Positions 42,601 to 64,000 of a DNA stretch of 64,000 nt are shown piece by piece. The DNA comes from Opitutales bacterium (GTDB lineage Bacteria; Verrucomicrobiota; Verrucomicrobiia; Opitutales; UBA2987): NCBI GenBank assembly GCA_965226885.1, contig CBDDEL010000014.1, positions 512,001-576,000 on the forward strand. The letters run 5' to 3'. The position numbers and the translations under genes were made by a program. The notes beneath the pieces are model-generated. The model searched no databases and was not told where the DNA came from. It saw nothing but the letters and a program-made list of their open reading frames with translations. The first letter of the stretch is position 1; every line of letters begins with the position of its first letter.

Positions 42601-42688
42601 CGTACTCGGAGGGTTTCCTTGAATGGGGGAACCTTTAGTCGCCCCTTCATTTAATGCGGATACTTTCACAGCTGGCGATAGCGTCGTC

Positions 42689-44080
42689 TTAGAGATTCCA
42701 GTGTTGCGGGTAGGCTTCCCGGTAAGTGATTTTGGCACAATAAATCGAACAACTGTCTTTTTCCTCATCGTTGATGGCTGGAAACACCCACCGCACGGGA
42801 ACGGTATGGACATGATCGCTTTGTGTGCTGACCGCGCTGACGCGATGGATGAGGTATTGGGTTTTCCCATTGTGAAAGAGCAGTTTGCACATGTCTGCCT
42901 TGGGTCTGGCTTCCTTTCTGAAGGGCAAACCCGCTTTCACCGTATCGAAAACGACGCGTTGATTGGAGGCCTCAAATTTATTATCCGGGTCGATATTCCA
43001 GCAATAAAGCGGATCCCAGCGGTTTTCATAGGGCGACACTTCGCAATCGCTGGAAAAGAGCCTGAGGACGCCGTCCGGGCACCTGTAAACGGTTTTGGGG
43101 GATTTGACGCCGGGAAACTCCTTGTAAATCGGTTCTGGAGGTTTGGCAAAGGGATCGTCCATGCGCAGCCATTTCAATCCTTTTCTGTAACTGACGTGAT
43201 CGACGACGTAATCGGTGCGAATCGAGCACACCCAGGAACCATTGTAGGGGGCCAGGCTGGCATCGGACAGGTGTTCATGCCCGAGAAAAAGGTAGTGCCC
43301 CGTCTCCACCCATTCATAGACCCCCTTTTCTTCATGGAAACGAAACTTAAGCGGCGCAAAACGGGCGCCATAGAAATGATTGCACATGACCCATTCGGTG
43401 CATTCCGGGTTAAAAGGAACAGGAGGCGTGTAGCCCTGCACCATGTGGACGGCATTCTCAGCGCTGCAAAAATCAGGCCCCTCATCTCCGTAACCGAGCT
43501 GCCGCAGTTGCCGGTTTTCCCGTAGAAACTCGATATCGTTTCCATCATCGTTCAGCCTTACTTGCGCCCATTCGGTGCTTGATGATCGTCTGTGTATATC
43601 GGGATCGATGTTGGTGCCTTCTGTCACATTAGTCTCGGGGTCAAACTCCCGGGCCACCATACGCCATAGCAGGACGAAGACATTGGCGCTTTCCGCTGGC
43701 TTGCCCCCGATATCCGCTCCCTTGGGTACCCCGAAAACGCAGGGGTGGCCATGCTGCTTGACGAATCGCCGGCCGTTGCCCAGAGCATCCCAATCGTTTA
43801 GGGTAGGCTGCATCATAGCTTCCTTGATGAGCCTGCCATGCGGGGTGTTTTCCCTGATTTGGTAAACGATGCTGGTGTCGTCGTCGGTCCCGCGAAACAT
43901 GCGTGTGGCGTATAAAATCAACCAGCGATTCTCGCTCAACTGAATTCCGCTGGGATGGGCCGGCACGACGTCGTCACTTCTCCGTTCACCCTCCAATCCG
44001 CATTCAGGAATCAATTTTCCGAGATGGTCGATTCGTTCAATTCCGTCAACTGGTGAATTAGTTGAAATGGATTCATTCAT
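42689..44080 (-). CDS. Hypothetical protein
   Basis: 463 aa ORF heading the minus-strand cluster. Confidence 0.7.
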   Translation of the reverse strand: MNESISTNSPVDGIERIDHLGKLIPECGLEGERRSDDVVPAHPSGIQLSENRWLILYATRMFRGTDDDTSIVYQIRENTPHGRLIKEAMMQPTLNDWDALGNGRRFVKQHGHPCVFGVPKGADIGGKPAESANVFVLLWRMVAREFDPETNVTEGTNIDPDIHRRSSSTEWAQVRLNDDGNDIEFLRENRQLRQLGYGDEGPDFCSAENAVHMVQGYTPPVPFNPECTEWVMCNHFYGARFAPLKFRFHEEKGVYEWVETGHYLFLGHEHLSDASLAPYNGSWVCSIRTDYVVDHVSYRKGLKWLRMDDPFAKPPEPIYKEFPGVKSPKTVYRCPDGVLRLFSSDCEVSPYENRWDPLYCWNIDPDNKFEASNQRVVFDTVKAGLPFRKEARPKADMCKLLFHNGKTQYLIHRVSAVSTQSDHVHTVPVRWVFPAINDEEKDSCSIYCAKITYREAYPQHWNL

Positions 44081-44899: not shown

Positions 44900-45701
44900 G
44901 GTAGTGTATTAAGTAGGAATGGTGGCTAATTCTTGATTATATTGATGAATGAAAAGTCTCAGACAGGTTTCATGCATACTCTTAAGCTTGGAAAAGGAGA
45001 GGGTTTTGCGTGTGAAACGACCCAGTCGTTGGCGCAGGGTATTGTTCCATCGTTCCACATGGGCCGTTTCACCGGTTTCTTTTCCCACGGATCGGTTATG
45101 AGGAAAGACTTCATCATAAGTGCTCCAAAAGTCGCTGTAGGTGGCACATCTTTTGTAGGCCCGTGGCAGACGCTCGTAAAGTTCCCGGCAACGATACCAA
45201 TCCCGAGGCCCAATGGCATAGGAGAGGATTTGACGGGTGCGTCGGCAAAGAGCGATCCAAACCCATTGGGCATCGCTCTTGCGCCCCACAAAAGACCACA
45301 GTTCGTCCAGTTCAATGACATCATGGCGGCGGGCCGCAAGAATCGTGCTTTTGAGCGGTCGCAGCGATTGTCGTTTTTTTTAACCAACTCAAAACGGTGT
45401 TGGGACTCACCCCGAAGGCGCGCTGTAAACCGCGTAGACTGCTGCGTTCCTGATAGACTCGAAGGATCATTTCTTTTTGCTCTTCGGTGTATTTCACTGT
45501 GGGGTTTTCGCGGCTTTGTTTACCACAATCATGGCAGCGGTAGCGCTGTTTATGGTTGGGCGTCTTGCCAAATTTAATGATATTTTCACTTCCACAGTGC
45601 CGACAATTAATAATTTTAGTAACCATGCACTAAGAATAAACTGCCTAACGCTATTTGTACAGCTAAAAATACAAAATAACATTCTTTTTTTATACACTAC
45701 C
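44900..45701 (-). mobile_element. IS1-family element, copy 3
   Basis: Same IRs and ORFs; no TSD. Confidence 0.95.
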
Positions 45702-46389
45702 CAAAAATTGAATAATGTAAATCGATTGTATTATCTATTATATGCTTCAGAAAATGGTTTTAATATTGATGACGAGCAAAACCAGAAAATTTTTGAGGCG
45801 GTAGTTAATATCCTAAGCCCCAATTCAGAGTGGTTGGAAGTAAATAAAATATCAGGAGTTGTTCAGCCTAATAATGCAGCGGGAGTTGTGATATCTTTTA
45901 ATTCAAGAAATATTTCATCCGGAACTTACGAAGCAATCCTCCAAATCGATACCAACGATCCGAGTAATAGAGATTTATCACTCCCGATAACAGTTACTGT
46001 GCAAGATCCGATAGCTCAAGACATTGTTGTTTCGCCTTTACAATTAAATTTCGGTCAATTGACCTCAGAAGCTTCAAGCAGTATTCCATTGACAATAACA
46101 AACTCTGGAGAAGATTTTCTCCATATATCAAACGTGTCCCTTGAAGGTGTTGATTTTTCTTTGGATAACGCCGGAGATATTCGGCTCGATAATGGAGAAA
46201 GCACTCAAATATTTGTTACCTTTAATCCCTGGTCGCAAGGAGAGTTCAACGGCACTATAACGATTCACAGTAATGATACGGAAACTCCGGAAATTACTGT
46301 CGGATTGAACGGATCAGGTCTGGTTCCCGACGGTTCGGTCACAACTGACGAATTAAATATTACATTGGAAAAAAGCCTGATCGGCTTAG
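45702..46389 (+). pseudogene. Internal fragment of a large secreted protein with Ig-like (ASH/choice-of-anchor-D-type) domains
   Basis: GTYEAIL.IDTNDP..LPITVTV, LNFG..LTITNSG..L.IS..F.P...G.ITIHSND..VGLNGSG; cut by IS1 and IS1380. Confidence 0.7.
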
Positions 46390-49094
46390 CCCGGATATTT
46401 CATGAAGGGTAAAGTTTGGCTCGTTATTGCTATTGGAGATGGATTTCTTTGTATTTTGAGCAGATCGTCTTGATTTTTAGGTGTTTTTCAGGGTGTAGAG
46501 ACACTGCCCCCTTTCCCTCATTGGTTCGGTAGTGCCGGGGGCAGCACCAATGCACCCTTTAGGTTGGCACCAATCGGCGGGCCGCATGGTTGAAAAGACT
46601 GGCCCAAGGATAACTCTCACTTAGGTGAAAGTGAATCGTTCGGGTGTTGCGCACGATGACCGCTCCGATCTTGATTAATTTGAGCCGCAGGGTGTGGCAT
46701 TGGGCCCGCGCCCACTTCGTCCCTTTTAAGGCTAACCGGCGCATGGCTTCCATCAAGGTGTAGGCCAGCGCCGACAAGAGCAATCGCCACTGATTGGCCC
46801 ACCATTGATGGGCGCTGGTGCGCTCGCTGAACAATTGCATCTGTTCCTTGATTCGGTTCTCCATTTCACCGCGGCCACAGTATACCTTGTCGTAAAGCTC
46901 CTGGGGATCGCCCGGCAGGTTCGTCACCACGAAGCGCGGGTTGGACCCCTGTGCGGTGTGTTCGGCTTTATGGATGACCAACCGCAGCCATCGCCACGAA
47001 TCGGCAGCATAGACGAAGTCCTGGAATAACCGTTGTTTTTTACCCCTTAGTTCGAACCATTCTTTGGCCTGCTTTTGCAACTGCTGGGCGTCTTGCTGCA
47101 AGCGTGCATTGCGAGCCATCCCCACGATGTAACTATTAATCCGGCAAATAAATAGTGACATATCAATAACTTATGCTAAAGTAGGTTCATGAATAGGAAT
47201 GATGCGCGTTCACTAAGCGAAGAGACTATATATGAGTTGAGGTGTCGGGCGGTGGATCTGAAAAGAGAGGGTTGCACTTATGAAGAGGTTTCCGTGGTTT
47301 TAAAGGTATCGATCAGCGCTGTGCGCAAATGGTGGGCCCTTTACCGAAATGGAGGGCCAAAAGCCCTGCGGCTTGGACAACGGGGCCGTCGGCAGGGCCA
47401 ATGTCGAAGATTGAGCTCCCAACAAGAGCGCATGGTGTGCCGAATGATTACCGATAAGAGGACCCGACCAGCTTAAGATGCCCTTTGCCCTGTGGACGCG
47501 CCAAGCGGTGCAAGAGTTGATTGAAAGGCAGTTTGCTTTGAAGATGCCGATCCGCACGGTGGGCGAGTATCTTCGCCGTTGGGGTTTCACTCCACAAAAA
47601 CCTCGAAGACAAGCCTATGAGCAGCAGCCTGAGGCGATTAAGAAGTGGCTTGATCAAACTTACCCGGCCATCGAAGCCAGAGCCAAAGCGCAACAGGCCC
47701 AAATCCACTGGGGAGATGAAACCGGCATCAGTAGCGAAGATCATCGGGGAAGAGGTTATGCTCCGCGCGGTAAAACGCCAGTTGCCAAACGCAGTGCGCG
47801 TCGTTTTAGCACGAGCATGATCTCGACTATAACCAACCGTGGAAAGCTGCGTTTCATGGTTTACAAGGGAGCCTTGAATGTGGAACTGTTTATCAAATTT
47901 CTGCGCCAGTTAATCAAAGGAGCCAAACGGAAAATCTTTCTCATTGTGGACAATCTGAGAGTGCATCATGCTAAAAAAGTAACCGGTTGGATTGAAGCCC
48001 ACCGCGATAGGATCGAGATTTTTTATCTACCATCTTACAGTCCCGAATTGAACCCCGATGAGTATTTGAATAACACGGTCAAAGCCAACTTGAAGAACCT
48101 GCCGGCCCCGCGCAGCCAAATTGAGTTGCAGGGAAGTCTGCGAACCCACCTGCGCAGCAGGCAACGAAAACCAATTTTGATTAAAAAACTCTTCCATCAT
48201 CGGGATGTTCAATACGCCGCTTAACTGTTACTATTCGCCGCTTAACTGTTACTATTCAATTGCCGGATTAATAACTTCGTTGCGGTCGCACCAAGAGAGT
48301 ATCCGGTCTCGACAAAATCCACTGTCGGCGCGCCAAATAATCCGCGTACGGGGCCAGCTTTGGCGAATCCGTTTAACCAGCAATTTGAGGATGGCCCCGG
48401 CATGCTTGCTGGCATCGATCTTGCTCGGCCGCAGGTAGGCCACCAGCAGCTGATCACCGCAAAAAACATATAGCGGCAGAAAACAGTAATGATCATAATA
48501 ACCGTGGAAAAAACGTCCCTCCTGGAGCCCGTGCACCGGATTGTCGGTGGCGTCAAAGTCCAGGATGATCTCTTCGGGTTCCTCGGCAAAGGAGCCCATG
48601 AACTGTTCGACCAACAGCTCGTTTACCGCAAAGGCCGCCCGCCGATCCTGCCCGTTTTCAAAACGACACAAAGTCGGCGCGCTGGCCAACGTTTCAATGC
48701 GCCCCGTTACCGTTTGCAACAATGGATCGTGGCGCAGGGTATCAAAGTCGTTCAAATCCTCATAGCCCGCCACCAGCCCGTAAACGCGCTGCCGCAGCAT
48801 CCCCAATACCTCATGGCGTACTTTGCCCTTCTGCCGTTTGTCCACTAACTGTCGGGCCGCTCGTTCGGTCAAGCCCAACTGCCGATCCACTTCCCGGATC
48901 AAAAGCAGTCCGGCATCCGAAGTAACCTCTCCGCCCTTGAAATCAACCCGCACACGGCGGCCTTTTACCCTTGTCAACTGTAGCTTTAATTGTTTACCTT
49001 TTGTCATCGCTGATATTGCTTTAATTATTGATCTATCCTGCTGTATATCAGCAGTTAAGCATATCAACGATACTTTTTTTACGAAATATCCGGG
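46390..49094 (-). mobile_element. IS1380-family copy A, interrupted by IS630 type B
   Basis: IR CCCGGATATTTC; transposase split 46559-47133 / 48274-49007. Confidence 0.93.
47136..48271 (+). mobile_element. IS630-family type B, copy 2 (frameshifted ~47460)
   Basis: TA duplicated 47134-35/48272-73; WGDETG, IVDNLRVH, LPSYSPELNPDE; 21-bp duplication 48216-48257. Confidence 0.93.
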
Positions 49095-49429
49095 CTAGCC
49101 GCACTTGCCTTTTTAAAAATTGTCTTAATTTTATTATCATTTGTCTTAACATAGTATCCTCCAGACTCTGGAGTGTCACTTTTCTCATTGGTTTTTACAA
49201 GCGGATATTGTCAATGCCATTTGGCGTAAATGGCGTAAAACAATATTATATTACCCCGAAAATATAACCCGGCAAGGACATATCGGGACTTACCCTGACT
49301 TATTATGAAGACTTAAACTTGACTGAAGTTACTCTTATCCAAAGAGTTAAATGCTCTCAACAAACAGCGATATATTTTGAACTGAAGACAGTTGCTTATT
49401 AAAAACCCGATAACCTATTTCTTTTTCAT

Positions 49430-49534: not shown

Positions 49535-49693
49535 TTAATCCTTGCTTACATCGCTCGGTGCGTTCTCCCCTTGCTGCTTTGGTTGGGTTTCGTCTGGTTT
49601 CTTGTAATCACCAATGACGCCTTTCAGCGGACAGGCTTTGAAGGCTGGACATTTCTTGCAGCCGACTACTAATGCAATAGGGCATATTGTCAT
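49535..49693 (-). CDS. Small Cys-rich protein (probable gene cassette ORF)
   Basis: MTICPIALVVGCKKCPAFKACPLKG..., strong AAGGAGG RBS. Confidence 0.7.
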   Translation of the reverse strand: MTICPIALVVGCKKCPAFKACPLKGVIGDYKKPDETQPKQQGENAPSDVSKD

Positions 49694-50103
49694 TCTCAAT
49701 TCCTCCTTATTAAGTGCTTGGCGGGGACACGCTCTGCGCGTTCTATCATAACATATTTCATATTGAAAGCAGGGCCTGCACAGCCAATGATGGGGCACGA
49801 TAAATTTTTAGCCGAAATTTGCAAGAAAATCTGTAATTCTTTGACTGAGAAGTGGATTTATCGGTTTTCCGCAATTTAGAGCCCATTTTTAATGATTCTT
49901 GGACGCTTCATTCGGTAGCGGTAAATCTACATCATCCAGTATCCAGCATCCTGAGAATGTTACCGACTGGTGACAAATTCGTCATACTTGGGAGTAATTT
50001 TTTGCAAAGTCACACTACATAGCGCTAAATAACGGCCAAATCGGGTCTGACGGCATAAACGCGTTGACCCTTTTCGGTGGGTGGAGGATATTGAAAATTC
50101 TTA

Positions 50104-51378
50104 ATGAGGAAGCACTACAGAATCGCGCTGGGGGGAGACCACGGTGGATTTGAATTGAAACAGGACCTTTTGGCCTATGCCCTGACCAGGGGCCATCATG
50201 TGCGCGATTGCGGAACTCATGGAAAAACTCCGGTCGATTATCCGGATATTGCCAAAAAAGTCGCCGGGATGGTGGCTTCCGGCGATTGCGATTTTGGGGT
50301 CCTAGTCGATGGCGCGGGCATTGGCTCGGCCATGGCAGCAAACAAAGTGCCGGGCATCCTGGCGGCGGCCTGTTATAATGAAGCGCTGGCCCGGAATTCA
50401 CGCCAACACAACGGCGCCAATGTCCTCACACTCGGGTCTGGCCAAACCAACATTTATGAGGCCAAAAAAATACTGGACGCTTTTCTGGAAACCGAATGCA
50501 AGGAAGAAAGGCATCTGCGGCGGGTGCAGCTTATCCGCGATATTGAGAGGGGAAATTATTCAACGACCGCAGCCATCGCGGAAACGGACAGTATCCTGGG
50601 AAAGCAGGAAATTCATCCCCACGACCTTGAGCGTATATCCCGCCGGGTGCAGGAATTAACCAGTGGCAATCCACCAGCGCAGGGCAACGGCGCATTTATC
50701 GGCCCGGACGAGATTGCCCAAATGATCGACCACACCATTTTGAAACCGGAGGCGTCTCTGGGAGACGTCCAAAAACTGAGTGAAGAAGCCAGGCAGTACC
50801 ACTTTTACTCTGTTTGTGTGAACCCCATCTATGCCCGCCAAGCCAAAGCCGCCCTGACCGGGACCGACGTTAAAGTTTGCTGTGTGGTGGGGTTTCCTCT
50901 GGGGGCCAATCCGCCGGAAACCAAGGCCATGGAAGCCCGCCGGGCCATCCGCGAAGGGGCCGGGGAAATCGACATGGTGATCAATGTGGGGGCCATGAAA
51001 AGCGGGAATGAGGATCTCGTATTGAAAGATATCCGCGCTGTGGCCGAGGCCTGTCGCGATGGCAGTGCCCTGCTCAAGGTGATTCTGGAAACCAGTCTTT
51101 TAACGGACCGGGAAAAAGTCCGGGTTTGTGAGTTGGCGATGAAAGCGGGGGCTGATTTTGTTAAGACCTCCACCGGTTTCGGTTCCGCCGGGGCCACGGT
51201 GGAAGATATCGCCCTGATGGCCAAAACAGTGGCGCAAAAAAAACTGGGAGTAAAAGCTTCCGGGGGAGTGCGCACCTATGAAGACGCGGTCAAAATGATT
51301 CGGGCAGGAGCCACCCGCATCGGCGCCAGCAGCGGAATCAAAATCGTCAAAAAAGCCATCGAACTGGCATCGAAATAG
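50104..51378 (+). CDS. deoC: RpiB-type sugar-phosphate isomerase - deoxyribose-phosphate aldolase fusion
   Basis: GGDHGG, PVDYPD, AANKVPG, HNGANVL; then [38 protein letters not shown]. Confidence 0.92.
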
Positions 51379-51413
51379 AAAAAAGAAAGACCTAAAAGAA
51401 GGAAAAATATCAC

Positions 51414-52037
51414 ATGGTTGAATTAAGAACCTACACCTTTCTGGACAGCCTGCAGCCGCAGTTTGCCTCGTTTATCGCCACCATTGCGGGAGGCTACTTG
51501 CCGGTTCCCGGCCAGGCTTCACTTTTCATCGAAATATCGCCCGGCATGGAAATCAACCGGGTGACCGATATCGCCTTGAAAGCGACCAACGTCAGGCCGG
51601 GCATGATGATCATTGAGCGGGTTTTTGGAATGCTCGAGGTGCACTCCAATTCCCAGGCCGATGTTCGCCAGGCGGGCGCGGCCATTCTGGAAGCGCTCGA
51701 TCTCAAAGAAGAAGACCGCCTAAAGCCGCATATCTCGACCAGCCAGTTGATCCGCAACATGTCCGATTACCACACCCAATTGATCAACAAGACCCGGCAT
51801 GGAAACATGATATTACCCGGACAAACCCTTTACATTATGGAGGTGGCCCCGGCCGGTTATGCCGCCATTGCGGCCAATGAGGCGGAAAAAGCGGCCAATA
51901 TCAATATCCTCGAGGTCAGGACCTTCGGCTCATTCGGGCGTTTCTACCTGGGGGGTGACGAGGCCGACATGGAAGTCGGTTACAAAGCGGCCGAACAAGC
52001 CATCAAGGATATCGATGGCCGGGAAATGAAACGCTAG
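51414..52037 (+). CDS. BMC-T shell protein (permuted, CcmP/CsoS1D-like)
   Basis: ELRTY.FLDSLQPQ, IER.FGMLEVH, PAGYAAIAANEAEKAANI, GSFGRFYL. Confidence 0.9.
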   Translation: MVELRTYTFLDSLQPQFASFIATIAGGYLPVPGQASLFIEISPGMEINRVTDIALKATNVRPGMMIIERVFGMLEVHSNSQADVRQAGAAILEALDLKEEDRLKPHISTSQLIRNMSDYHTQLINKTRHGNMILPGQTLYIMEVAPAGYAAIAANEAEKAANINILEVRTFGSFGRFYLGGDEADMEVGYKAAEQAIKDIDGREMKR

Positions 52038-52109
52038 AAAATCGAATTTTTGTTATTCAAATCAATACTGCACAAAAAACTTAAACAACCTATTGGAGAA
52101 TAAAATAAT

Positions 52110-52409
52110 ATGGCAGAAGCATTAGGAATGGTGGAAACAAGATCGTTTGCCGCAGCCGTGGAAGCGGGCGACGCGATGGTAAAGGCTGCCAAGGTGGATC
52201 TCGTTTCTTACGAGAAAACCGGCGGCGGCTACATAACGGTAATAGTCAGAGGCGACGTCGCCTCGGTTAAAGCATCCTGCGATGCCGGGCAGGTCGCCGG
52301 CTCCCGGGTAGGAGAAGTGGTCGCCGTGCACGTGATCCCGCGCCCGCACGCCAATATCGATCAGGTTCTGCCGCTGGGCCGCACTCCGCGGGCCGGAAGC
52401 AAAAAATAA
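52110..52409 (+). CDS. BMC-H hexameric shell protein
   Basis: [35 protein letters not shown]. Confidence 0.95.
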
Positions 52410-52512
52410 AAAAGTAACCCTCAATTTCCCAGCCGCAGAGAGGGCCCGGGCATTCTGGATCAAGGTCCCCGGCCCCGGCCTCAACCTGTCCGGCTGGATA
52501 TTTTGCATTGCT

Positions 52513-52800
52513 ATGAATCTCGGAAAAGTAGTCGGCACCTTGGTTGCCAGCCAAAAAGTTTCCAGCATGGATGGGCTCAAGCTCCTCCTGGTAAAATACC
52601 TCGATAGCTCCGGCCAGGAAACCGGCGGCCAGGTGGTGGCCGCGGACGCCGTTGGCGCCGGGGTGGAGGAATACGTCCTCATCGCCACCGGCAGTTCCGC
52701 CCGGCAAACAGAAGCCACCGATAACCGACCCTGCGATGCCGTCATCCTGGCCATCGTCGACAGTTGGGAAATCGGTGGGGACATCGTCTATAAAAAATAA
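52513..52800 (+). CDS. BMC-P vertex protein (EutN/CcmL)
   Basis: [35 protein letters not shown]. Confidence 0.95.
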
Positions 52801-52826
52801 ATAAATAAAACTTCTATAAGTTGCCC

Positions 52827-53657
52827 ATGCGTTTAACAGATCACGAAATCGAAGCCATCGCCCAAAAAATCGCTTCCAAAACTCCGGCTTCTGGCCGGCG
52901 ACCGATAGTAGTCGGCAATTGGAAGATGCACAAGACGCCCTCCGAGGGCGAGGCCTTGGTGCGGGAATTAGCCGCCCTGGTGCAGACTGCGGATTGTGAA
53001 ATCGGGGTCGCTCCCGCCTTTCCGTGCCTGGAACGAGTGGGCAATGCACTGACTGGGGCCGGATCAAAGGTTTTGCTTTGCGCCCAGAATGCTTATTGGG
53101 AAAAGGAGGGCGCCTATACCGGCGAGGTGGCCATCGGCATGTTGGTCGAGATCGGCGTTACCCACATCATCATCGGCCATAGCGAGCGCAGGCAGTATTT
53201 CGGAGAAACGGATGAGACCGTCAACGGCAGGGCGAAAGCGGTTCTTGAGGCCGGACTGACCTCCATTCTCTGCGTGGGGGAATCCCTTCAGGACCGCGAA
53301 GCCGGATTAACCAATGCCGTGGTCGATCGTCAGGTCAGGGGCGGATTGGCGGGGCTGTCCAGCAGCCAGGTCGCAGGCATGGTGCTTGCCTATGAACCGG
53401 TTTGGGCTATCGGCACGGGCAAGGTGGCCACAGTGGAAGAGGCCCAGGCGGTCCATGCCGTCATTCGCCAACTTCTGACCGAGCTATACGACGAGCCGAC
53501 AGCCGAAGCCGTGCGCATCCAGTACGGAGGCAGCGTGAAACCGGACAACGCCGCCCAACTGCTGGCCCAACCGGACATTGATGGAGCGCTGGTGGGGGGC
53601 GCTGCTTTAAAAGCGACGGATTTCGCCGCCATCTGTTTGGCCGCTGGGAGGCCGTAG
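52827..53657 (+). CDS. tpiA: Triosephosphate isomerase with N-terminal encapsulation-peptide-like extension
   Basis: [33 protein letters not shown]; extra [17 protein letters not shown]. Confidence 0.93.
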
Positions 53658-53720
53658 TTTTTCCATTGAATATATAAAGAATCAAAATTTCCCGAATATT
53701 CTGCAGGGAGAGATTTCAGG

Positions 53721-55175
53721 ATGATAAGATTGACCGATCAAGAGATTGAAGCCATCGCGGAAAAGATAGCCCGCATTCAGCAGGCGTCCCTGGCGGCTGG
53801 AATTCCCGCCGGTCTCGTTCCATCCGCAGTTTCTCTTCCCAGTCAAAACCTGGGCGTATTTCCCACCGTCGAAGCGGCCGTGGCGGCGGCCAAAATAGCT
53901 CAAATATCGTGGGTGGCCCTCCCGCTCGACCATCGCCGCCGGATCATCGCCGCAATTCGCGAAGTAATGCTGGAAAACGCGGCGCCCCTGGCCAAGGCGG
54001 CCCACGATGAAACCGGTTTGGGACGGTTTGAGGACAAGGTTGTAAAAAATCGCCTGGTGACGGAAAAAACCCCCGGCATTGAGGAGCTTCAACCCATTTC
54101 CTACACTGGCGATCACGGTCTTACCTTGCAGGAATCGGCGCCCTTCGGCGTCATCGGGGCCATCACCCCGACGACCAACCCCACTTCCACCATCATTTGT
54201 AATTCCATCGGCATGATCGCGGCCGGCAACAGCGTCGCTTTCAACGTCCATCCCAACGCCAAAAGCTGTTCCGCCCAGACCATTGTTTTGCTCAATAAAA
54301 CGATCCTGAACGAAGGCGGGCCGGAAAATCTGGTCACCACGGTGGCCACGCCGACCATCCAGAGCGCCCAGGCCCTCATGGCCCATAAGGATGTCCGGCT
54401 GGTGGTGGTCACAGGCGGTCCTGGGGTGGTCAAAGCGGCCCAACAGAGCGGCAAGCGAGCCATTTGCGCCGGGCCGGGCAATCCCCCCGTGGTGGTCGAT
54501 GAGACCGCAGATATGGCCAATGCCGCCAAATGTATCGTTCTGGGCGCCTCGACCGACAATAACATCATTTGCACGAATGAGAAAGAGGTCGTCGTAGTTT
54601 CCAGTGTGGCCGACCAGTTGATGGCGGCCTTCGAGGACCGCCAGGATGCCTATATCATTTCTTCCGAACAAATGGCTCAACTCGAAAATGTCATTTTTAC
54701 GGAAATGCACGGACCAAGACAAAAGGCCAGGGTAAATCCTGCCTGCATCGGCAAAAACGCCAATGTCATCCTGCGGCAGATCGGTCTCGATTTACCGGAT
54801 ACGATTCGCCTGGGCATCGTAGAAGTCAATGAAGGCCATCCACTACTTTGGACCGAGCAAATGATGCCGATCATGCCGGTAACCCGGGTGCCCAATGCCG
54901 ATTACGCCATCGACCTGGCCGTCAAAATGGAAAGCGGCTGCCGCCATACCGCCGTCATGCATTCGAAGAACATCGACAACCTGAGCCGCATGGCGCGTGA
55001 GTGCAATTGCAGTATTTTCGTTAAAAACGGCCGCTCCCAGGCAGGCCTCGGTCTGGATGGCGAAGGCTATTGTTCCTTTACCATCGCCAGTCCCACGGGG
55101 GAAGGACTAACCGGACCGCGTTCCTTTTCGCGCTGGCGTAGGTGTACTTTGGTGGACGCTTTCAGGATCATCTGA
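53721..55175 (+). CDS. CoA-acylating aldehyde dehydrogenase (EutE/PduP-like) with encapsulation peptide
   Basis: ETGLGR..DK..KN, PFGVIGAITPTTNP, TGGPGVV, AGPGNPP, NNIICTNEK, SPTGEGLT..RRC. Confidence 0.93.
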   Translation: MIRLTDQEIEAIAEKIARIQQASLAAGIPAGLVPSAVSLPSQNLGVFPTVEAAVAAAKIAQISWVALPLDHRRRIIAAIREVMLENAAPLAKAAHDETGLGRFEDKVVKNRLVTEKTPGIEELQPISYTGDHGLTLQESAPFGVIGAITPTTNPTSTIICNSIGMIAAGNSVAFNVHPNAKSCSAQTIVLLNKTILNEGGPENLVTTVATPTIQSAQALMAHKDVRLVVVTGGPGVVKAAQQSGKRAICAGPGNPPVVVDETADMANAAKCIVLGASTDNNIICTNEKEVVVVSSVADQLMAAFEDRQDAYIISSEQMAQLENVIFTEMHGPRQKARVNPACIGKNANVILRQIGLDLPDTIRLGIVEVNEGHPLLWTEQMMPIMPVTRVPNADYAIDLAVKMESGCRHTAVMHSKNIDNLSRMARECNCSIFVKNGRSQAGLGLDGEGYCSFTIASPTGEGLTGPRSFSRWRRCTLVDAFRII

Positions 55176-55179
55176 TTTG

Positions 55180-55827
55180 ATGAAAAAGCATCCTGCCATT
55201 GCCACCGTTGAATTTCAGAATATCGCCGTGGGCCTTCATACCACGGACGCCATGCTGAAAAGAGCGCCCATCGACCTCATTAAGTCGGGCACCATCAGCC
55301 GCGGACGCTTTCTCACCCTGATTGCCGGTACGACGGCCTCCGTGGATGAATCCTACCACACGGGGCTCATCCTGGGCGGCGACAGCGTGGTGGACAGCGT
55401 GCTCCTGGTGGACGTGCATTGCGATGTGCATGACGCCGTATTCGGTCAACGCACGCCCTGCCTGCCCCTGGCCACAGCCATAATGGAAACCGATACCGTT
55501 TCCAGCAACATCAGGGCGGCCGAAATGGCCCTCAAGGGCACCGACGTCAGCCTGGTCGAGATTCGTTTGGCCGACAGCCTTTTATCGGGCAAAGGACTCA
55601 GCATCTACCAGGGCGAACTCCATGAAATCGAATCGGCCATGGAGATCGCGGGAAACTTCCTGAACTCCCGAAAGATTGAGTTTACGGAGAAAATCATCGC
55701 CTCGCCCCACGAGGGTCTGGTCGAGCAAATCAATTTCACGACCTCTTTCAACAAAGCGAAATACCTCGAACTGGAAGGCGAAGGGAATTACCTGCCTGGA
55801 TTTGAAGCTCTGTCTGGCAGGTTTTAA
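55180..55827 (+). CDS. BMC-T shell protein (PduT-like, single layer)
   Basis: Two BMC domains: EFQNIAVG..DAMLK..; ETDTVSS..AAE.ALKGTDV.L.EIRLA..GKG; lacks the PduT Fe-S Cys. Confidence 0.85.
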   Translation: MKKHPAIATVEFQNIAVGLHTTDAMLKRAPIDLIKSGTISRGRFLTLIAGTTASVDESYHTGLILGGDSVVDSVLLVDVHCDVHDAVFGQRTPCLPLATAIMETDTVSSNIRAAEMALKGTDVSLVEIRLADSLLSGKGLSIYQGELHEIESAMEIAGNFLNSRKIEFTEKIIASPHEGLVEQINFTTSFNKAKYLELEGEGNYLPGFEALSGRF

Positions 55828-55845
55828 GATTATTCAAATGTCATA

Positions 55846-56133
55846 ATGAAATTGGGTCGCGTCATTGGAACGGTGGTTTGCTCGGTGCTTTACGAGGGGT
55901 TGGAAGGCGTTCCCATGCTGTGGGTGCAGCCCTTGGACAAAAACCTCGAACCGAAGGGAAATTCTCTGGTGGCGGCGGACCAGACGAGGGCCGCCGGTCC
56001 CGGAGAATTGGTGAATTTTGAGGGCGGGCGCGAGGCGGCTATGGCCCTCGATATCACCTTCGTGCCGGTCGATCACACCATTATCGGGATTATCGACGGT
56101 GTGAATACGATTAGCGGAGAGCAGGGCGCATGA
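55846..56133 (+). CDS. BMC-P vertex protein (EutN/CcmL)
   Basis: GRVIGTVV..VAAD..AGPGE..GREAA..PVDHTIIGIID. Confidence 0.92.
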   Translation: MKLGRVIGTVVCSVLYEGLEGVPMLWVQPLDKNLEPKGNSLVAADQTRAAGPGELVNFEGGREAAMALDITFVPVDHTIIGIIDGVNTISGEQGA

Positions 56134-56411
56134 TCATCGGCAATGTTATCGGAGATGTGTTTTCCACCATCAACCATCCGTTTTACGACGGCAAAAAATT
56201 ACTCATGGTGGAAACGACCGATTTTTCGGGCAAACCGGATGGAGATTACGTCATAGCCATCGATTACGCCCAGGCCGGGGTGGGGGACCAAGTGCTCGTC
56301 CTGGACGAAGGCAATGGTGCCCGCCAGGTGGTTGACGATTCCACCGCTCCGCTTCGCTCCATCATCGTCGGCGTGGTGGACCATGTTGAAATTGGGACGA
56401 ACTCACTTTAG
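56130..56411 (+). CDS. BMC-P vertex protein (EutN/CcmL)
   Basis: [33 protein letters not shown]. Confidence 0.92.
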
Positions 56412-56927
56412 GGCGAATTGAAATGCCTGCTGGCTGCCTTCCAGTCTAAGGAGCGCTTCTTTGATGGGTAAACCGCCTCCGAAACCGGTCAGTGTGCCAT
56501 CGCTGCCGATCACCCGGTGACAGGGCACTATAATGGCGATGGGATTTTTTCCGTTGGCCCCACCCACTGCGCGGACCGCTCTGGGGTTCCCGATTTGATC
56601 CGCCAACTGACCGTATGAAATCGTCTCACCGTAGGGAATGGAGCGCAGGGCTTTCCACACGCCCATTTGAAAATCCGTTCCCCGTGGGGCCAACGGCAGA
56701 TCGAATTGCTTTAAATCACCAGCAAAATAAGCTTTCAGTTGTTTCACCACCTGAGCAAACCTCGCATCATCCTGAACCCAGTCCCTCTTAGGTTTAAAAG
56801 GATGGGGGCCCTCCTGAAAATCGAGCCCAGTCAGACTCTCGCCGTTTCCCGTCAAGAGGAGTTTGCCTACGGGACTTTTTACAATTGTATAAAAAAAAGA
56901 GTGTTTTTCCAGTTTCATTGCCTCCAT
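56403..56927 (-). CDS. ogt: Methylated-DNA-protein-cysteine methyltransferase
   Basis: GTDFQ..VW..IPYGET.SY, RAVG, PCHRV. Confidence 0.95.
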
Positions 56928-57190: not shown

Positions 57191-58757
57191 CCCGGATATT
57201 TCGTAAAAAAAGTATCGTTTATATGCTTAACTGCTGATATACAGCAGGATAGATCAATAATTAAAGCAATATCAGCGATGACAAAAGGTAAACAATTAAA
57301 GCTACAGTTGACAAGGGTAAAAGGCCGCCGTGTGCGGGTTGATTTCAAGGGCGGAGAGGTTACTTCGGATGCCGGACTGCTTTTGATCCGGGAAGTGGAT
57401 CGGCAGTTGGGCTTGACCGAACGAGCGGCCCGACAGTTAGTGGACAAACGGCAGAAGGGCAAAGTACGCCATGAGGTATTGGGGATGCTGCGGCAGCGCG
57501 TTTACGGGCTGGTGGCGGGCTATGAGGATTTGAACGACTTTGATACCCTGCGCCACGATCCATTGTTGCAAACGGTAACGGGGCGCATTGAAACGTTGGC
57601 CAGCGCGCCGACTTTGTGTCGTTTTGAAAACGGGCAGGATCGGCGGGCGGCCTTTGCGGTAAACGAGCTGTTGGTCGAACAGTTCATGGGCTCCTTTGCC
57701 GAGGAACCCGAAGAGATCATCCTGGACTTTGACGCCACCGACAATCCGGTGCACGGGCTCCAGGAGGGACGTTTTTTCCACGGTTATTATGATCATTACT
57801 GTTTTCTGCCGCTATATGTTTTTTGCGGTGATCAGCTGCTGGTGGCCTACCTGCGGCCGAGCAAGATCGATGCCAGCAAGCATGCTGGGGCCATCCTCAA
57901 ATTGCTGGTTAAACGGATTCGCCAAAGCTGGCCCCGTACGCGGATTATTTGGCGCGCCGACAGTGGATTTTGTCGAGACCGGATACTCTCTTGGTGCGAC
58001 CGCAACGAAGTTAGTTACATCGTGGGGATGGCTCGCAATGCACGCTTGCAGCAAGACGCCCAGCAGTTGCAAAAGCAGGCCAAAGAATGGTTCGAACTAA
58101 GGGGTAAAAAACAACGGTTATTCCAGGACTTCGTCTATGCTGCCGATTCGTGGCGATGGCTGCGGTTGGTCATCCATAAAGCCGCACACACCGCACAGGG
58201 GTCCAACCCGCGCTTCGTGGTGACGAACCTGCCGGGCGATCCCCAGGAGCTTTACGACAAGGTATACTGTGGCCGCGGTGAAATGGAGAACCGAATCAAG
58301 GAACAGATGCAATTGTTCAGCGAGCGCACCAGCGCCCATCAATGGTGGGCCAATCAGTGGCGATTGCTCTTGTCGGCGCTGGCCTACACCTTGATGGAAG
58401 CCATGCGCCGGTTAGCCTTAAAAGGGACGAAGTGGGCGCGGGCCCAATGCCACACCCTGCGGCTCAAATTAATCAAGATCGGAGCGGTCATCGTGCGCAA
58501 CACCCGAACGATTCACTTTCACCTAAGTGAGAGTTATCCTTGGGCCAGTCTTTTCAACCATGCGGCCCGCCGATTGGTGCCAACCTAAAGGGTGCATTGG
58601 TGCTGCCCCCGGCACTACCGAACCAATGGGGGAAAGGGGGCAGTGTCTCTACACCCTGAAAAACACCTAAAAATCAAGACGATCTGCTCAAAATACAAAG
58701 AAATCCATCTCCAATAGCAATAACGAGCCAAACTTTACCCTTCATGAAATATCCGGG
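57191..58757 (+). mobile_element. IS1380-family copy B (intact; transposase 57278-58588)
   Basis: IR CCCGGATATTTC, CTAG on both flanks; TSDAG, LDFDATD, RADSGF, RGEMENRIKE. Confidence 0.96.
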
Positions 58758-58769
58758 CTAGTTCTTTTC

Positions 58770-59441
58770 TTGAAACCGTTTAGCTTCATTTAAGGGCGGA
58801 TTTACCGGTTGAATGAGGGGGCAAGGGATCCCCGGTTGTCCGTGCCAGCAGGAGCATACCATGTGTAATCTCACTAGTGGCGCTATCGGAAACAAAGGGC
58901 AGCGGTTGAGTTGAAATGCCAATACTGATGGGATTTGTCCCAACAATGGGTTCGTGGCCGGAGGGTGCGGCCACTCTGGGAGGTGAATTAGCCGCGACAA
59001 CAGTTGCCACCCCCTTCCGCAGGCCATACGAACCCAATCACCAATCGTTCTGCTCGGGTAGAGAGCGGAGCTTGTAGCGAAGCAGATGTCTTGCTTCTGA
59101 ACCGCACGACAGCCCGCTTCCATTAATCTATGGAGAACCGGGTAACCTAGATGTTAGGCTCCGTCCACATGGAGGCGCCCGGAACCAATACGCCGGGGAG
59201 CGGGCGCTGAGGCATTGCCATAAGGCCCAAATTTACCTGAGGAAACAAGATAATGAATGCGGATCAAGCCGTGGTCCGATTTGCCCGCCCGCTCAGAACG
59301 TATCAGATGATCCACCGTTATGGCGGCGTCTTCCCGGGGCAATTTAAGTTTTGTCTCAAGCATTCCAATCAATGGTTCCCTGAGCGAAGCCACCTTCACC
59401 CTGGTCCTGGGAAATTCCCCGTTTTTCATCATTTCCAACAA
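58770..59441 (-). pseudogene. Ldh2 (malate/L-lactate/sulfolactate-type) dehydrogenase remnant
   Basis: SDHGLIRI, VDGA*, NSPPRVA..GTNPISIG..DSATS spread over several frames. Confidence 0.72.
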
Positions 59442-59499
59442 AGGGGCAAGCCGTTGAGGCTTGTGCTTTGGAGGCTTAAATTATAGCTTAACACCGACC

Positions 59500-60262
59500 A
59501 TGCGAACTGTGAATTGGGATAAATTGAAACCGCCCACCGCCCTTCTGTTTTTTATTTTGACTTCAGTAGTGGCGATTTTGCTGGGTTTCTTCCTGCTCTC
59601 CAGGGAAACCATGGCCTCCTGGTTTCAGGCTGCGGGCTATTATTTTATTTTCGCAACTTTTATTATATGGGCAGCCAGCCTGTGGCCGGAAAAACTGACT
59701 TTTGAGCGGTCCCAAGAGTTCATCCGCGGGCATTGGCCCGCCTTGGCGGTGGCCTTTATTCTGACCGCGGCGGGGATTTTAAACAGCCCGCCGAAATTCC
59801 GCATCCTGGCGGACGAAACGAACCTCATGGGCGTGGCCCTGTCGATGTACAGGGAGCGTTCCGTCGGCAACACCACAGAGGGGTATTATTATTTTGAGAG
59901 CTTTGAGCCGAAAACTACCGTTCAGGGCAAACGTCCGCTCCTTTTCCCCTTTCTCGTATCGGTTCTCCACACAGTTAAAGGTTACAGCGCCTCCAACGGG
60001 TTCGTGCTCAACGCCCTGGCCGGGTTCCTGACCCTATTTTTATTTTACTTTCTGCTCCAGCGGATTTTTTCCAGTGGTTTAGCCCTGCTTGGAATGCTCC
60101 TTCTGGCCTCATTTCCAGTTTATGTTATCGGGGTCTCCTCTAGCGGGTTCGAGATCGTCAATTTACTCTTTGCTTTGATTGCATTCCTCCTGCTGGATGT
60201 CTATTTGGAAAAGCGGGAGCCTCGCCACGCGGAGTTGCTGGGGCTAACCCTCGTGCTCCTAT
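59500..60262 (+). pseudogene. Multi-pass membrane glycosyltransferase-like (GT-C) protein truncated by IS1380
   Basis: Many TM helices, ILADE motif, KRPLLFPFLVS. Confidence 0.6.
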
Positions 60263-61835
60263 CCCGGATATTTCGTAAAAAAAGTATCGTTGATATGCTT
60301 AACTGCTGATATACAGCAGGATAGATCAATAATTAAAGCAATATCAGCGATGACAAAAGGTAAACAATTAAAGCTACAGTTGACAAGGGTAAAAGGCCGC
60401 CGTGTGCGGGTTGATTTCAAGGGCGGAGAGGTTACTTCGGATGCCGGACTGCTTTTGATCCGGGAAGTGGATCGGCAGTTGGGCTTGACCGAACGAGCGG
60501 CCCGACAGTTAGTGGACAAACGGCAGAAGGGCAAAGTACGCCATGAGGTCTTGGGGATGCTGCGGCAGCGCGTTTACGGGCTGGTGGCGGGCTATGAGGA
60601 TTTGAACGACTTTGATACCCTGCGCCACGATCCATTGTTGCAAACGGTAACGGGGCGCATTGAAACGTTGGCCAGCGCGCCGACTTTGTGTCGTTTTGAA
60701 AACGGGCAGGATCGGCGGGCGGCCTTTGCGGTAAACGAGCTGTTGGTCGAACAGTTCATGGGCTCCTTTGCCGAGGAACCCGAAGAGATCATCCTGGACT
60801 TTGACGCCACCGACAATCCGGTGCACGGGCTCCAGGAGGGACGTTTTTTCCACGGTTATTATGATCATTACTGTTTTCTGCCGCTATATGTTTTTTGCGG
60901 TGATCAGCTGCTGGTGGCCTACCTGCGGCCGAGCAAGATCGATGCCAGCAAGCATGCCGGGGCCATCCTCAAATTGCTGGTTAAACGGATTCGCCAAAGC
61001 TGGCCCCGTACGCGGATTATTTGGCGCGCCGACAGTGGATTTTGTCGAGACCGGATACTCTCTTGGTGCGACCGCAACGAAGTTAGTTACATCGTGGGGA
61101 TGGCTCGCAATGCACGCTTGCAGCAAGACGCCCAGCAGTTGCAAAAGCAGGCCAAAGAATGGTTCGAACTAAGGGGTAAAAAACAACGGTTATTCCAGGA
61201 CTTCGTCTATGCTGCCGATTCGTGGCGATGGCTGCGGTTGGTCATCCATAAAGCCGAACACACCGCACAGGGGTCCAACCCGCGCTTCGTGGTGACGAAC
61301 CTGCCGGGCGATCCCCAGGAGCTTTACGACAAGGTATACTGTGGCCGCGGTGAAATGGAGAACCGAATCAAGGAACAGATGCAATTGTTCAGCGAGCGCA
61401 CCAGCGCCCATCAATGGTGGGCCAATCAGTGGCGATTGCTCTTGTCGGCGCTGGCCTACACCTTGATGGAAGCCATGCGCCGGTTAGCCTTAAAAGGGAC
61501 GAAGTGGGCGCGGGCCCAATGCCACACCCTGCGGCTCAAATTAATCAAGATCGGAGCGGTCATCGTGCGCAACACCCGAACGATTCACTTTCACCTAAGT
61601 GAGAGTTATCCTTGGGCCAGTCTTTTCAACCATGCGGCCCGCCGATTGGTGCCAACCTAAAGGGTGCATTGGTGCTGCCCCCGGCACTACCGAACCAATG
61701 GGGGAAAGGGGGCAGTGTCTCTACACCCTGAAAAACACCTAAAAATCAAGACGATCTGCTCAAAATACAAAGAAATCCATCTCCAATAGCAATAGCAATA
61801 ACGAGCCAAACTTTACCCTTCATGAAATATCCGGG
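60263..61835 (+). mobile_element. IS1380 copy C (intact transposase 60350-61660)
   Basis: Full IRs; 6-bp duplication at 61785-61796. Confidence 0.95.
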
Positions 61836-63069
61836 TTAGTGGACAAACGGCAGAAGGGCAAAGTACGCCATGAGGTATTGGGGATGCTGCGGCAGCGCGT
61901 TTACGGGCTGGTGGCGGGCTATGAGGATTTGAACGACTTTGATACCCTGCGCCACGATCCATTGTTGCAAACGGTAACGGGGCGCATTGAAACGTTGGCC
62001 AGCGCGCCGACTTTGTGTCGTTTTGAAAACGGGCAGGATCGGCGGGCGGCCTTTGCGGTAAACGAGCTGTTGGTCGAACAGTTCATGGGCTCTTTTGCCG
62101 AGGAACCCGAAGAGATCATCCTGGACTTTGACGCCACCGACAATCCGGTGCACGGGCTCCAGGAGGGACGTTTTTTCCACGGTTATTATGATCATTACTG
62201 TTTTCTGCCGCTATATGTTTTTTGCGGTGATCAGCTGCTGGTGGCCTACCTGCGGCCGAGCAAGATCGATGCCAGCAAGCATGCCGGGGCCATCCTCAGA
62301 TTGCTGGTTAAACGGATTCGCCAAAGCTGGCCCCGTACGCGGATTATTTGGCGCGCCGACAGTGGATTTTGTCGAGACCGGATACTCTCTTGGTGCGACC
62401 GCAACGAAGTTAGTTACATCGTGGGGATGGCTCGCAATGCACGCTTGCAGCAAGACGCCCAGCAGTTGCAAAAGCAGGCCAAAGAATGGTTCGAACTAAG
62501 GGGTAAAAAACAACGGTTATTCCAGGACTTCGTCTATGCTGCCGATTCGTGGCGATGGCTGCGGTTGGTCATCCATAAAGCCGAACACACCGCACAGGGG
62601 TCCAACCCGCGCTTCGTGGTGACGAACCTGCCGGGCGATCCCCAGGAGCTTTACGACAAGGTATACTGTGGCCGCGGTGAAATGGAGAACCGAATCAAGG
62701 AACAGATGCAATTGTTCAGCGAGCGCACCAGCGCCCATCAATGGTGGGCCAATCAGTGCCGATTGCTCTTGTCGGCGCTGGCCTACACCTTGATGGAAGC
62801 CATGCGCCGGTTAGCCTTAAAAGGGACGAAGTGGGCGCGGGCCCAATGCCACACCCTGCGGCTCAAATTAATCAAGATCGGAGCGGTCATCGTGCGCAAC
62901 ACCCGAACGATTCACTTTCACCTAAGTGAGAGTTATCCTTGGGCCAGTCTTTTCAACCATGCGGCCCGCCGATTGGTGCCAACCTAAAGGGTGCATTGGT
63001 GCTGCCCCCGGCACTACCGAACCAATGGGGGAAAGGGGGCAGTGTCTCTACACCCTGAAAAACACCTAA
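61836..63069 (+). mobile_element. IS1380 copy D (internal fragment, both ends cut)
   Basis: Begins at an internal TTAG, ends at an internal CTAA. Confidence 0.92.
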
Positions 63070-63903
63070 CCCGGATATTTCGTAAAAAAAGTATCGTTGA
63101 TATGCTTAACTGCTGATATACAGCAGGATAGATCAATAATTAAAGCAATATCAGCGATGACAAAAGGTAAACAATTAAAGCTACAGTTGACAAGGGTAAA
63201 AGGCCGCCGTGTGCGGGTTGATTTCGGTTGATTTCAAGGGCGGAGAGGTTACTTCGGATGCCGGACTGCTTTTGATCCGGGAAGTGGATCGGCAGTTGGG
63301 CTTGACCAAACGAGCGGCCCGACAGTTAGTGGACAAACGGCAGAAGGGCAAAGTACGCCATGAGGTATTGGGGATGCTGCGGCAGCGCGTTTACGGGCTG
63401 GTGGCGGGCTATGAGGATTTGAACGACTTTGATACCCTGCGCCACGATCCATTGTTGCAAACGGTAACGGGGCGCATTGAAACGTTGGCCAGCGCGCCGA
63501 CTTTGTGTCGTTTTGAAAACGGGCAGGATCGGCGGGCGGCCTTTGCGGTAAACGAGCTGTTGGTCGAACAGTTCATGGGCTCCTTTGCCGAGGAACCCGA
63601 AGAGATCATCCTGGACTTTGACGCCACCGACAATCCGGTGCACGGGCTCCAGGAGGGACGTTTTTTCCACGGTTATTATGATCATTACTGTTTTCTGCCG
63701 CTATATGTTTTTTGCGGTGATCAGCTGCTGGTGGCCTACCTGCGGCCGAGCAAGATCGATGCCAGCAAGCATGCCGGGGCCATCCTCAAATTGCTGGTTA
63801 AACGGATTCGCCAAAGCTGGCCCCGAACGCGGATTATTTGGCGCGCCGACAGTGGATTTTGTCGAGACCGGATACTCTCTTGGTGCGACCGCAACGAAGT
63901 TAG
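63070..63903 (+). mobile_element. IS1380 copy E (5' half, frameshifted)
   Basis: Left IR; 10-bp duplication 63216-63235; ends at an internal TTAG. Confidence 0.92.
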
Positions 63904-64000
63904 CCCGGATATTTCATGAAGGGTAAAGTTTGGCTCGTTATTGCTATTGGAGATGGATTTCTTTGTATTTTGAGCAGATCGTCTTGATTTTTAGGTGTTT
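63904..64000 (-). mobile_element. IS1380 copy F (right end, runs off window)
   Basis: CCCGGATATTTCATGAAG, same as 46390. Confidence 0.9.

Follow-up and report, generated by a model that had tools for sequence, protein, structure and literature searches.

Catabolic bacterial microcompartments (BMCs) are generally seen as optional, substrate-induced modules, and the question raised by the locus described here is how such a module comes to hold a gene of central metabolism of which no other copy is found in the cell. The locus lies at 50104-56411 of a window of 64,000 nt (positions 512,001-576,000, forward strand, of contig CBDDEL010000014.1 in assembly GCA_965226885.1, from an Opitutales bacterium; the genome is referred to as G000). 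Open reading frame (ORF) calls and Pfam and NCBIfam scans agree with a preliminary description of this DNA in giving nine intact ORFs, all on the + strand and separated by intergenic gaps of -4 to 103 nt, in the order rpiB-deoC fusion, BMC-T(dp), BMC-H, BMC-P, tpi, aldDH, BMC-T(s), BMC-P, BMC-P (Table 1). No BMC-domain or pentamer genes were found outside the locus in G000, which is 96.3% complete and was compared with four further genomes of its genus, G001-G004 (81-93% complete). All nine genes are under purifying selection, with dN/dS of about 0.03-0.31 relative to G004 and of at most 0.1 relative to G001, where dS is near saturation. The junctions up to tpi are no assembly artefact, because a contig from a second public run spans 49700-53415 with one letter different. 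The reading preferred here, to which we give a probability of roughly 0.7, is that the operon would specify a metabolosome of the SPU3 subtype of sugar-phosphate utilisation (SPU) organelles, serving deoxyribonucleoside catabolism, and that it also carries the cell's only triosephosphate isomerase (TPI).

The evidence that carries this reading is in the first place one of gene content. In each of the five genus genomes the TIM profile has exactly one match, always the gene of the BMC locus and always situated between BMC-P and aldDH. The likely start of the gene is ATG 52827, which is common to the five genus copies and to a metagenome locus (L188), rather than TTG 52821, and the catalytic residues N33, K35, H120 and E192 (counted from TTG 52821), equivalent to N9, K11, H95 and E167 of Escherichia coli, are intact. 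All four family genomes without BMC-P have a native tpi after pgk, facing an OmpA/Pal-type gene; this native tpi is absent from the pgk-pal interval of all five genus genomes, in which the interval is assembled and contiguous. In G000 the interval (C17:74564-78583) has an endonuclease I-family gene and an M28 peptidase gene in the place of tpi, with no remnant of the latter detected (best E 0.07), and in G001-G004 at least one of the two genes stands between pgk and pal. As a control, an untagged tpi stands directly after pgk in 5/5 hosts of SPU3 loci that lack tpi. It could be argued that the single copy is an artefact of incomplete assembly, or that TPI is bypassed by an unrecognised enzyme or route, and both the incompleteness of the genomes and the presence of glpK, zwf and tkt, which allow partial TPI bypasses, leave some room for this; but five assemblies with one TIM match each, and an ancestral site that is assembled, occupied by other genes and without a remnant, make it very improbable. 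The claim that the organelle-locus tpi, which bears a packaging tag, is the sole copy and that the native one has been lost is well supported. As regards the genes now at the old tpi site (C17:75766-77953, corresponding to L139:3767-5954), the endonuclease I-family gene has a signal-peptide-like start and abuts the pgk stop in 4/5 genomes, and the M28 peptidase gene is present in 4/5. A secreted DNase in this position would fit a habit of DNA scavenging, though it may have come there by chance.

On sequence comparison the remaining tpi is foreign in origin. The enzyme is 43-46% identical to the TPIs of the family and 68-70% identical to untagged proteins, some of them named Candidatus Sumerlaeota, and in both trees calculated (one of 151 rows, the other of 37 rows, a selection from these plus 6 added) the genus TPIs do not fall with any native TPI of the order or phylum. 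A clade uniting the genus TPIs with the native family TPIs is rejected by the approximately unbiased test at p 1.2e-5 (LG+G4, run after the first tree had been inspected). Outside the genus, tagged TPIs comprise P0021, P0063 and that of L188, the last in a locus of identical nine-gene order, and a concatenated RpiB/DeoC/Tdp/H tree of 35 loci unites L188 with the genus in one clade (100/100) among loci without tpi. Since the three out-of-genus tagged TPIs are not resolved as one clade, either together or with the genus TPIs, what speaks for a single origin is the locus tree together with the shared position, from which it would most simply follow that one gain of tagged tpi in this lineage of loci preceded the uptake of the locus by the genus. 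A metagenome pattern scan for such proteins gave 63 matches, one of which was a BMC locus (L188) and the other 62 of which were without a BMC or TPI match, and a region-limited protein search yielded just five genus-level proteins. What tells against uniqueness is that the only TIM match is an SPU-locus gene in two unrelated genomes as well, out of five further BMC-bearing ones (G433, locus L055, and G434, locus L075; completeness not given), so that sole-copy tpi at SPU loci may be recurrent. No statement on sole-copy status in SPU loci was found by full-text searches of the literature or in the readable text and supplements of PMC11585597, and other tables and subscription papers may bear on the matter.

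The second line of evidence concerns the N-terminus of the protein. Residues 1-18 of the TPI form a separate helix in an AlphaFold model (mean pLDDT 89.6, the first two ten-residue blocks having 88 and 76), and when a profile built from 24 aldehyde dehydrogenase (AldDH) peptides from outside the genus was run against 35,387 ORFs of G000, the TPI was matched at iE 1.3e-6 and the AldDH at 1.7e-4, the next match having 2.3. By this measure the TPI peptide is homologous to the AldDH encapsulation peptide (EP), and the earlier suggestion of a TPI with a packaging peptide is borne out as far as profile match and modelled helix go. No other ORF among the 35,387 has an AldDH-type EP, other types of EP not having been searched for. 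The peptide is kept in all ten aligned tagged TPIs and, on 18 codons only, varies less than the whole enzyme (pN 0.023 against 0.141 between G000 and G001, and 0.023 against 0.051 between G000 and G004). A candidate EP-free form of TPI made from an internal start was rejected, as no in-frame ATG, GTG or TTG between the peptide and the catalytic N/K is conserved in the five genus copies, although rarer starts are possible; a complex prediction for the TPI and AldDH peptides scored 0.23 against a mark of 0.32 and was not used. Alternatively, the organelle could be the same and the TPI in practice an ordinary cytosolic enzyme that travelled with the operon and supplanted the native copy, its N-terminal helix having no packaging role. 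A short linker of about six residues joins the peptide helix to the TPI domain, as such an enzyme would allow, and operon membership alone can evidently displace a housekeeping tpi, because the sole TPI of G433 lies at an SPU locus without any such peptide (in G434 the start of the sole TPI is cut off). The homology of the peptide to AldDH EPs, its retention in every tagged TPI and its conservation beyond that of the enzyme body argue the other way, and a purely cytosolic TPI is considered unlikely.

Glycolysis and gluconeogenesis between them need TPI in both directions, and GpsA needs dihydroxyacetone phosphate (DHAP). The genome G000 has pgi, one pfk (with motifs that we take to be of the PPi type), four class II aldolase genes (fba), gap, pgk, gpmM, eno and gpsA. 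Two E. coli pyruvate kinase queries found no match in G000, where a PPDK/PpsA-like gene is present, and no edd reached the cut-off in the four genus genomes tested. Because the tagged protein is encoded by the only TIM-family gene and the native tpi is missing, glycolysis, gluconeogenesis and the supply of lipid precursors should, on this gene complement, rely on it; both the localisation and the essentiality of the TPI are what we infer from it. It is plausible by analogy that TPI within the lumen could supply the whole cell, since Tpi loaded into shells of Haliangium ochraceum (HO) is active, with capping not reducing activity (PMC11924220), and since the simulated permeability of shells to the triose phosphates (G3P/DHAP) is high (PMC12720247). 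Incomplete encapsulation would be an equally sufficient and more conservative reading. The stronger proposition is that most of the TPI is in the shell, so that all interconversion of glyceraldehyde 3-phosphate (GAP) and DHAP for glycolysis, gluconeogenesis and lipid synthesis passes through a normally optional catabolic organelle, which the displacement of the native tpi would have fixed as a constitutive, housekeeping one; it is put forward tentatively and is on balance doubtful.

As to what the organelle would degrade, the first gene of the operon encodes a fusion of ribose-5-phosphate isomerase (RPI, here RpiB) with deoxyribose-phosphate aldolase (DERA, DeoC). The catalytic residues of DERA, mapped from the E. 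coli protein, are intact (D290, K354 and K384), which supports, at the level of sequence, the original proposal of an organelle that cleaves deoxyribose-5-phosphate; an SPU6 homologue of DERA cleaves this compound in vitro (PMC11585597). The deoC match is single, and inside the BMC locus, in 5/5 genus genomes and is found in 0/4 other family genomes. On another contig than the BMC locus, G000 has a deoB-pdp-pnp-permease run (C15:72274-77000), and this deoB/nucleoside-phosphorylase operon can, to judge from its genes, supply deoxyribose-5-phosphate; deoB is present in 4/5 genus genomes, the one without it being 81% complete. Two other SPU3 loci have similar genes adjoining them, deoB-, pdp-, pnp- and cdd-like (cytidine deaminase) genes after the last pentamer gene in L002, and pdp and pnp just downstream in L001. 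The RpiB domain has Asp69 at the position of E. coli Cys66 and His102 as the equivalent of His99, and Asp stands in for this Cys in 34 of 35 loci, the remaining one not being scored. All SPU RPIs carry Asp for Cys66 and that of SPU6 is nearly inactive (PMC11585597). An amphipathic helix in the linker between the two domains, at about residues 171-187 of the fusion, is a putative middle EP. A second, free-standing RpiB in G000 (C13:190308-190724) has Gly at the Cys66 position. It has to be asked whether some other sugar phosphate is the main substrate, isomerised by the Asp-type RpiB and cleaved as the product by DeoC, with TPI equilibrating the triose. Such a route would account for the conservation of the RpiB domain (dN/dS about 0.07-0.1), which keeps equivalents of D9, H10, H99, R133 and R137, and for the prevalence of the Asp, and PMC11585597 leaves room for further substrates; against it stand the deoB and nucleoside phosphorylase genes adjoining the sister SPU3 loci, the finding that the fusion is the genome's only DeoC and the action of SPU6 DERA on deoxyribose-5-phosphate, and we hold it to be quite unlikely.

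The preferred scheme, then, would run as follows. Cytosolic nucleoside phosphorylases and DeoB, the genes for which are present, would generate deoxyribose-5-phosphate; DERA within the shell would cleave it to GAP and acetaldehyde, as the in vitro activity of its homologue and its intact residues suggest, and AldDH would trap the acetaldehyde as acetyl-CoA. Without phosphotransacylase (PTAC), Pta or AckA, acetyl-CoA, CoA and NAD(H) would have to cross the shell, probably via the gated CcmP-like trimer, in line with the export of acetyl-CoA through the BMC-T(dp) pore that has been proposed for PTAC-free loci (PMC11585597). Given the near inactivity of the SPU6 enzyme, the RpiB domain with its Asp substitution probably serves as a packing module. 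In one SPU3 clade, a foreign tpi bearing a copy of the AldDH-type EP would have entered the ancestral locus between BMC-P and aldDH; after the genus had acquired the locus the native tpi behind pgk would have been lost; and the single tagged TPI would then serve glycolysis, gluconeogenesis and the provision of DHAP for glycerol-3-phosphate. This would require basal expression of the operon and, in addition, either a TPI that is partly unencapsulated or a shell permeable to triose phosphates.

The remaining proteins of the locus can be placed with some precision. Cys284 of the AldDH is invariant in 8/8 aligned proteins, and its closest solved structures are the aldehyde dehydrogenases 5jfl and 4c3s. 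For BMC-T(dp) the best PDB matches are CcmP (E 4e-76, 258 bits) and HO-5816 (E 2.5e-73, 249 bits). BMC-T(s) scores 94 bits with PduT as against 54 bits with 5dih, which is presumably the HO T1 shell protein. The pore cysteine of PduT binds a 4Fe-4S cluster, and BMC-T(s) has Ser where the 3pac alignment has this residue, so that the earlier label of a PduT-like trimer holds for the sequence but not for the Fe-S site. As had been noted before, the ORF list and family scans reveal no PTAC, acetate kinase, alcohol dehydrogenase or regulator within the locus, and the absence of PduL is expected for SPU3. The search for satellite pduL and ackA genes elsewhere that the preliminary description had called for produced neither, as PTAC (PF06130) and Pta are found in 0/5 genus genomes and acetate kinase (PF00871) has no match in G000; three Fe-dependent alcohol dehydrogenase (Fe-ADH) genes are present in G000, away from the locus. 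Cofactor recycling had been called unexplained, and for CoA this no longer applies in view of the published T(dp)-export model (PMC11585597), but for NAD+ it does.

Table 1. Features of the microcompartment operon and its upstream region (window positions).
Feature	Position	Strand	Basis
Imperfect palindrome (TGT-N12-ACA type), candidate operator/activator site	49958..49975	.	about 130 nt upstream of first ATG; 5/5 genus upstream regions
Candidate sigma-70 promoter, 17-nt spacer	50064..50092	+	9/12 consensus matches; -35 part conserved in 5/5 genus genomes
RpiB-DeoC (RPI-DERA) fusion, SPU3 signature	50104..51378	+	PF02502 + PF01791; TIGR00126 284.7 bits, cut-off 117.3
BMC-T(dp), permuted, CcmP-like gated trimer	51414..52037	+	PDB matches; NF053796 314.9 bits, under cut-off of 340
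BMC-H hexamer	52110..52409	+	PF00936 E 1e-28
BMC-P pentamer 1	52513..52800	+	PF03319
Putative TPI encapsulation peptide, residues 1-18	52827..52880	+	homology to AldDH peptide; AlphaFold helix 5-18
Triosephosphate isomerase, xenologous by sequence, only TIM-family gene found in genome	52827..53657	+	profile, trees
CoA-acylating AldDH (EutE/PduP type), N-terminal EP	53721..55175	+	NF011927 633.7 bits, cut-off 403
BMC-T(s), PduT-like sequence without Fe-S-binding pore Cys	55180..55827	+	family scan and 3pac alignment
BMC-P pentamer 2	55846..56133	+	PF03319
BMC-P pentamer 3	56130..56411	+	PF03319

The region upstream of the operon contains a palindrome and a candidate promoter (Table 1). The promoter scan gave 6 sites where 4.7 were expected by chance and so is in itself no evidence; a trans-acting factor on the operon is nevertheless likely, because the upstream elements are conserved in 5/5 genus genomes. 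A second exact copy of the palindrome is located in the mnmE coding sequence (G000 C6:4262-4279), where it is kept in 4/5 genus genomes and may be either a binding site or a coincidence of the coding sequence. Weaker copies are clustered on that contig, close to mnmG, recA and dnaN. No regulon was found, further matches being mostly in coding sequence or insertion sequence (IS) copies; a scan of 32 further SPU3 loci, for most of which the upstream sequence covered is only 200-320 nt, did not show the palindrome, and Rfam had no match upstream of the operon.

A number of points weigh against the preferred reading. The linker that follows the peptide helix is shorter than the unstructured linkers by which EPs are defined in PMC11585597, and the genus genomes are 81-96% complete. 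The regeneration of NAD+ is left unexplained, and the conserved palindrome suggests an induced operon with basal expression and not a purely constitutive one. In two of the four family genomes without the organelle deoB is present and deoC absent. Nucleoside-phosphorylase expansion was considered as support for deoxyribose use and rejected, as PNP_UDP_1 family matches, which number 9-13 per genus genome, amount to 5-12 in the organelle-free rest of the family (0-6 in 32 other genomes of the order). The deoB and phosphorylase genes thus do not single out deoxyribose use, because family members without the organelle carry them.

Around the operon, IS transposase copies and fragments are dense at 44900-49100 and 57200-64000, and for a further IS family the genome-wide matches number well above a hundred. 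In the loci of G002 (L103:7533-12245) and G004 (L105:1325-5273) other genes (a cytochrome c-like pair; IS copies) part the last two pentamer genes from BMC-T(s), with no insertion upstream of or inside tpi-aldDH. A convergent ogt gene (O6-methylguanine methyltransferase, 56403-56927) overlaps the stop of the last pentamer gene, and in G001 and G004 too the locus has a similar gene behind it. Further upstream, a gene for a 463-aa protein without a Pfam match (42689-44080), which has three paralogues (35-42% identity) on contig C13, is next to a KDPG-aldolase-like gene (41839-42870), and a 52-aa ORF with four cysteines (49535-49693) is divergent from the operon and single-copy in the genome, the longer 87-aa frame having no Pfam match.

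Should the preferred reading hold, a horizontally acquired organelle operon would be holding the sole copy of a core glycolytic enzyme tagged for packaging. This would be a natural case of an accessory organelle locus turning indispensable, and of cargo recruited by gain of an existing EP. It would also provide a native system for asking whether an encapsulated enzyme carries whole-cell flux across the shell, and a native TPI-loading tag for a field that loads TPI artificially. Relative to the literature found, what is new is that throughout a genus the housekeeping TPI has given way to a foreign one bearing a peptide of the AldDH type; the organelle type itself is published.

In its sequence features the locus is a published SPU3 microcompartment, and the earlier assignment to SPU organelles is thereby supported. 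It combines DERA and AldDH with shell genes, a BMC-P triplet with at least one BMC-T(s), and an Asp-type RPI in which His99 is kept, and it has the N-terminal RPI joined through a helical linker to a C-terminal DERA, the CcmP-like T(dp) and the absence of PTAC that mark SPU3. DERA is described as unique to SPU loci, the RPI-DERA fusion is reported from 20 SPU3 loci and the CcmP-like T(dp) from SPU2 and SPU3 (PMC11585597), so that no novelty attaches to the fusion, the trimer or the missing PTAC. Further features shared with described SPU3 loci are the middle EP of the fusion and the N-terminal EP of AldDH (PMC8217296, PMC11585597). The TPI is where they part: Table S2 of PMC11585597, which lists no PTAC for SPU3, gives its TPI, descriptively rather than as a defining feature, as having no extension, and an EP on TPI for SPU4 alone, whereas here the TPI has an N-terminal EP and is the genome's only one, and PduS and class II aldolase are absent from the locus. 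The agreement with a described subtype, raised beforehand as a threat to novelty, thus extends to SPU3 but not to an EP-bearing TPI. Seven loci among 80 fetched with the fusion protein have the full order rpiB-deoC, Tdp, H, P, aldDH, Ts, P, P without tpi, and T(dp) occurs in 24 of 400 sampled phylum genomes, in 23 of which BMC-P is directly followed by aldDH without tpi, the other locus being cut short (two of the 24 are apparently the same records as L001 and L002). That SPU loci can include a TPI is knowledge as old as the name of the type (PMC4207490), and archaeal type II loci have the enzyme too (PMC12747264). SPU4, the sole subtype listed with this kind of tag, differs in having PTAC and no BMC-T(dp) (PMC11585597), and the TPI peptide was probably gained independently of that in SPU4, because it is of the SPU3 AldDH type, although the trees contained no SPU4 TPIs. 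The SPU1-like loci L055 (Elusimicrobia) and L075 (a Deltaproteobacteria record) resemble this one in that the locus tpi is the only TIM match of either genome, but they have another gene order, PTAC in L055 and TPIs that group away from that of the genus; the L055 TPI lacks an AldDH-type EP and the L075 TPI is truncated at its start, where the contig ends.

The likeness to the HO microcompartment that had been pointed out is real for the shell genes, given the related T(dp), the pentamer triplet and an order Tdp-H-P-AldDH-Ts that resembles the HO locus. A locus of the HO type, whose function is not known, with DeoC in it by accident would agree with this order and with nearly equal T(dp) scores for HO-5816 and CcmP, but it is extremely improbable, since DERA sits in the main locus, here as part of the first gene, and this decides for SPU; DERA is described as unique to SPU and the fusion as SPU3-specific (PMC11585597), and the HO main locus, in the account available, is without DERA, with DeoC, if present in HO genomes, lying elsewhere (PMC8217296). 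In the Tpi-loaded HO shells TPI is likewise active inside, its loading being synthetic (SpyCatcher) and not native (PMC11924220, PMC13185154).

The PVM microcompartment has PTAC, acetate kinase, alcohol dehydrogenase, class II aldolase and a regulator in its locus. None of these is in the present locus, nor has G000 a PF06130 or PF00871 match, and the view that this is not a PVM organelle stands; all 12 genomes from other families of the order that have BMC-P also have PTAC. The kinetoplastid glycosome is membrane-bound and eukaryotic and contains several glycolytic enzymes, targeted by signal peptide. The comparison is by analogy only, a core glycolytic step being sent to an organelle by a signal peptide there, as it would be here, whereas in G000 this peptide type is on no other protein than the TPI and the AldDH among the ORFs searched. 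If it were true that most of the TPI is in the shell, the organelle would be a one-enzyme bacterial analogue of the glycosome, and such capture may have recurred in SPU lineages.

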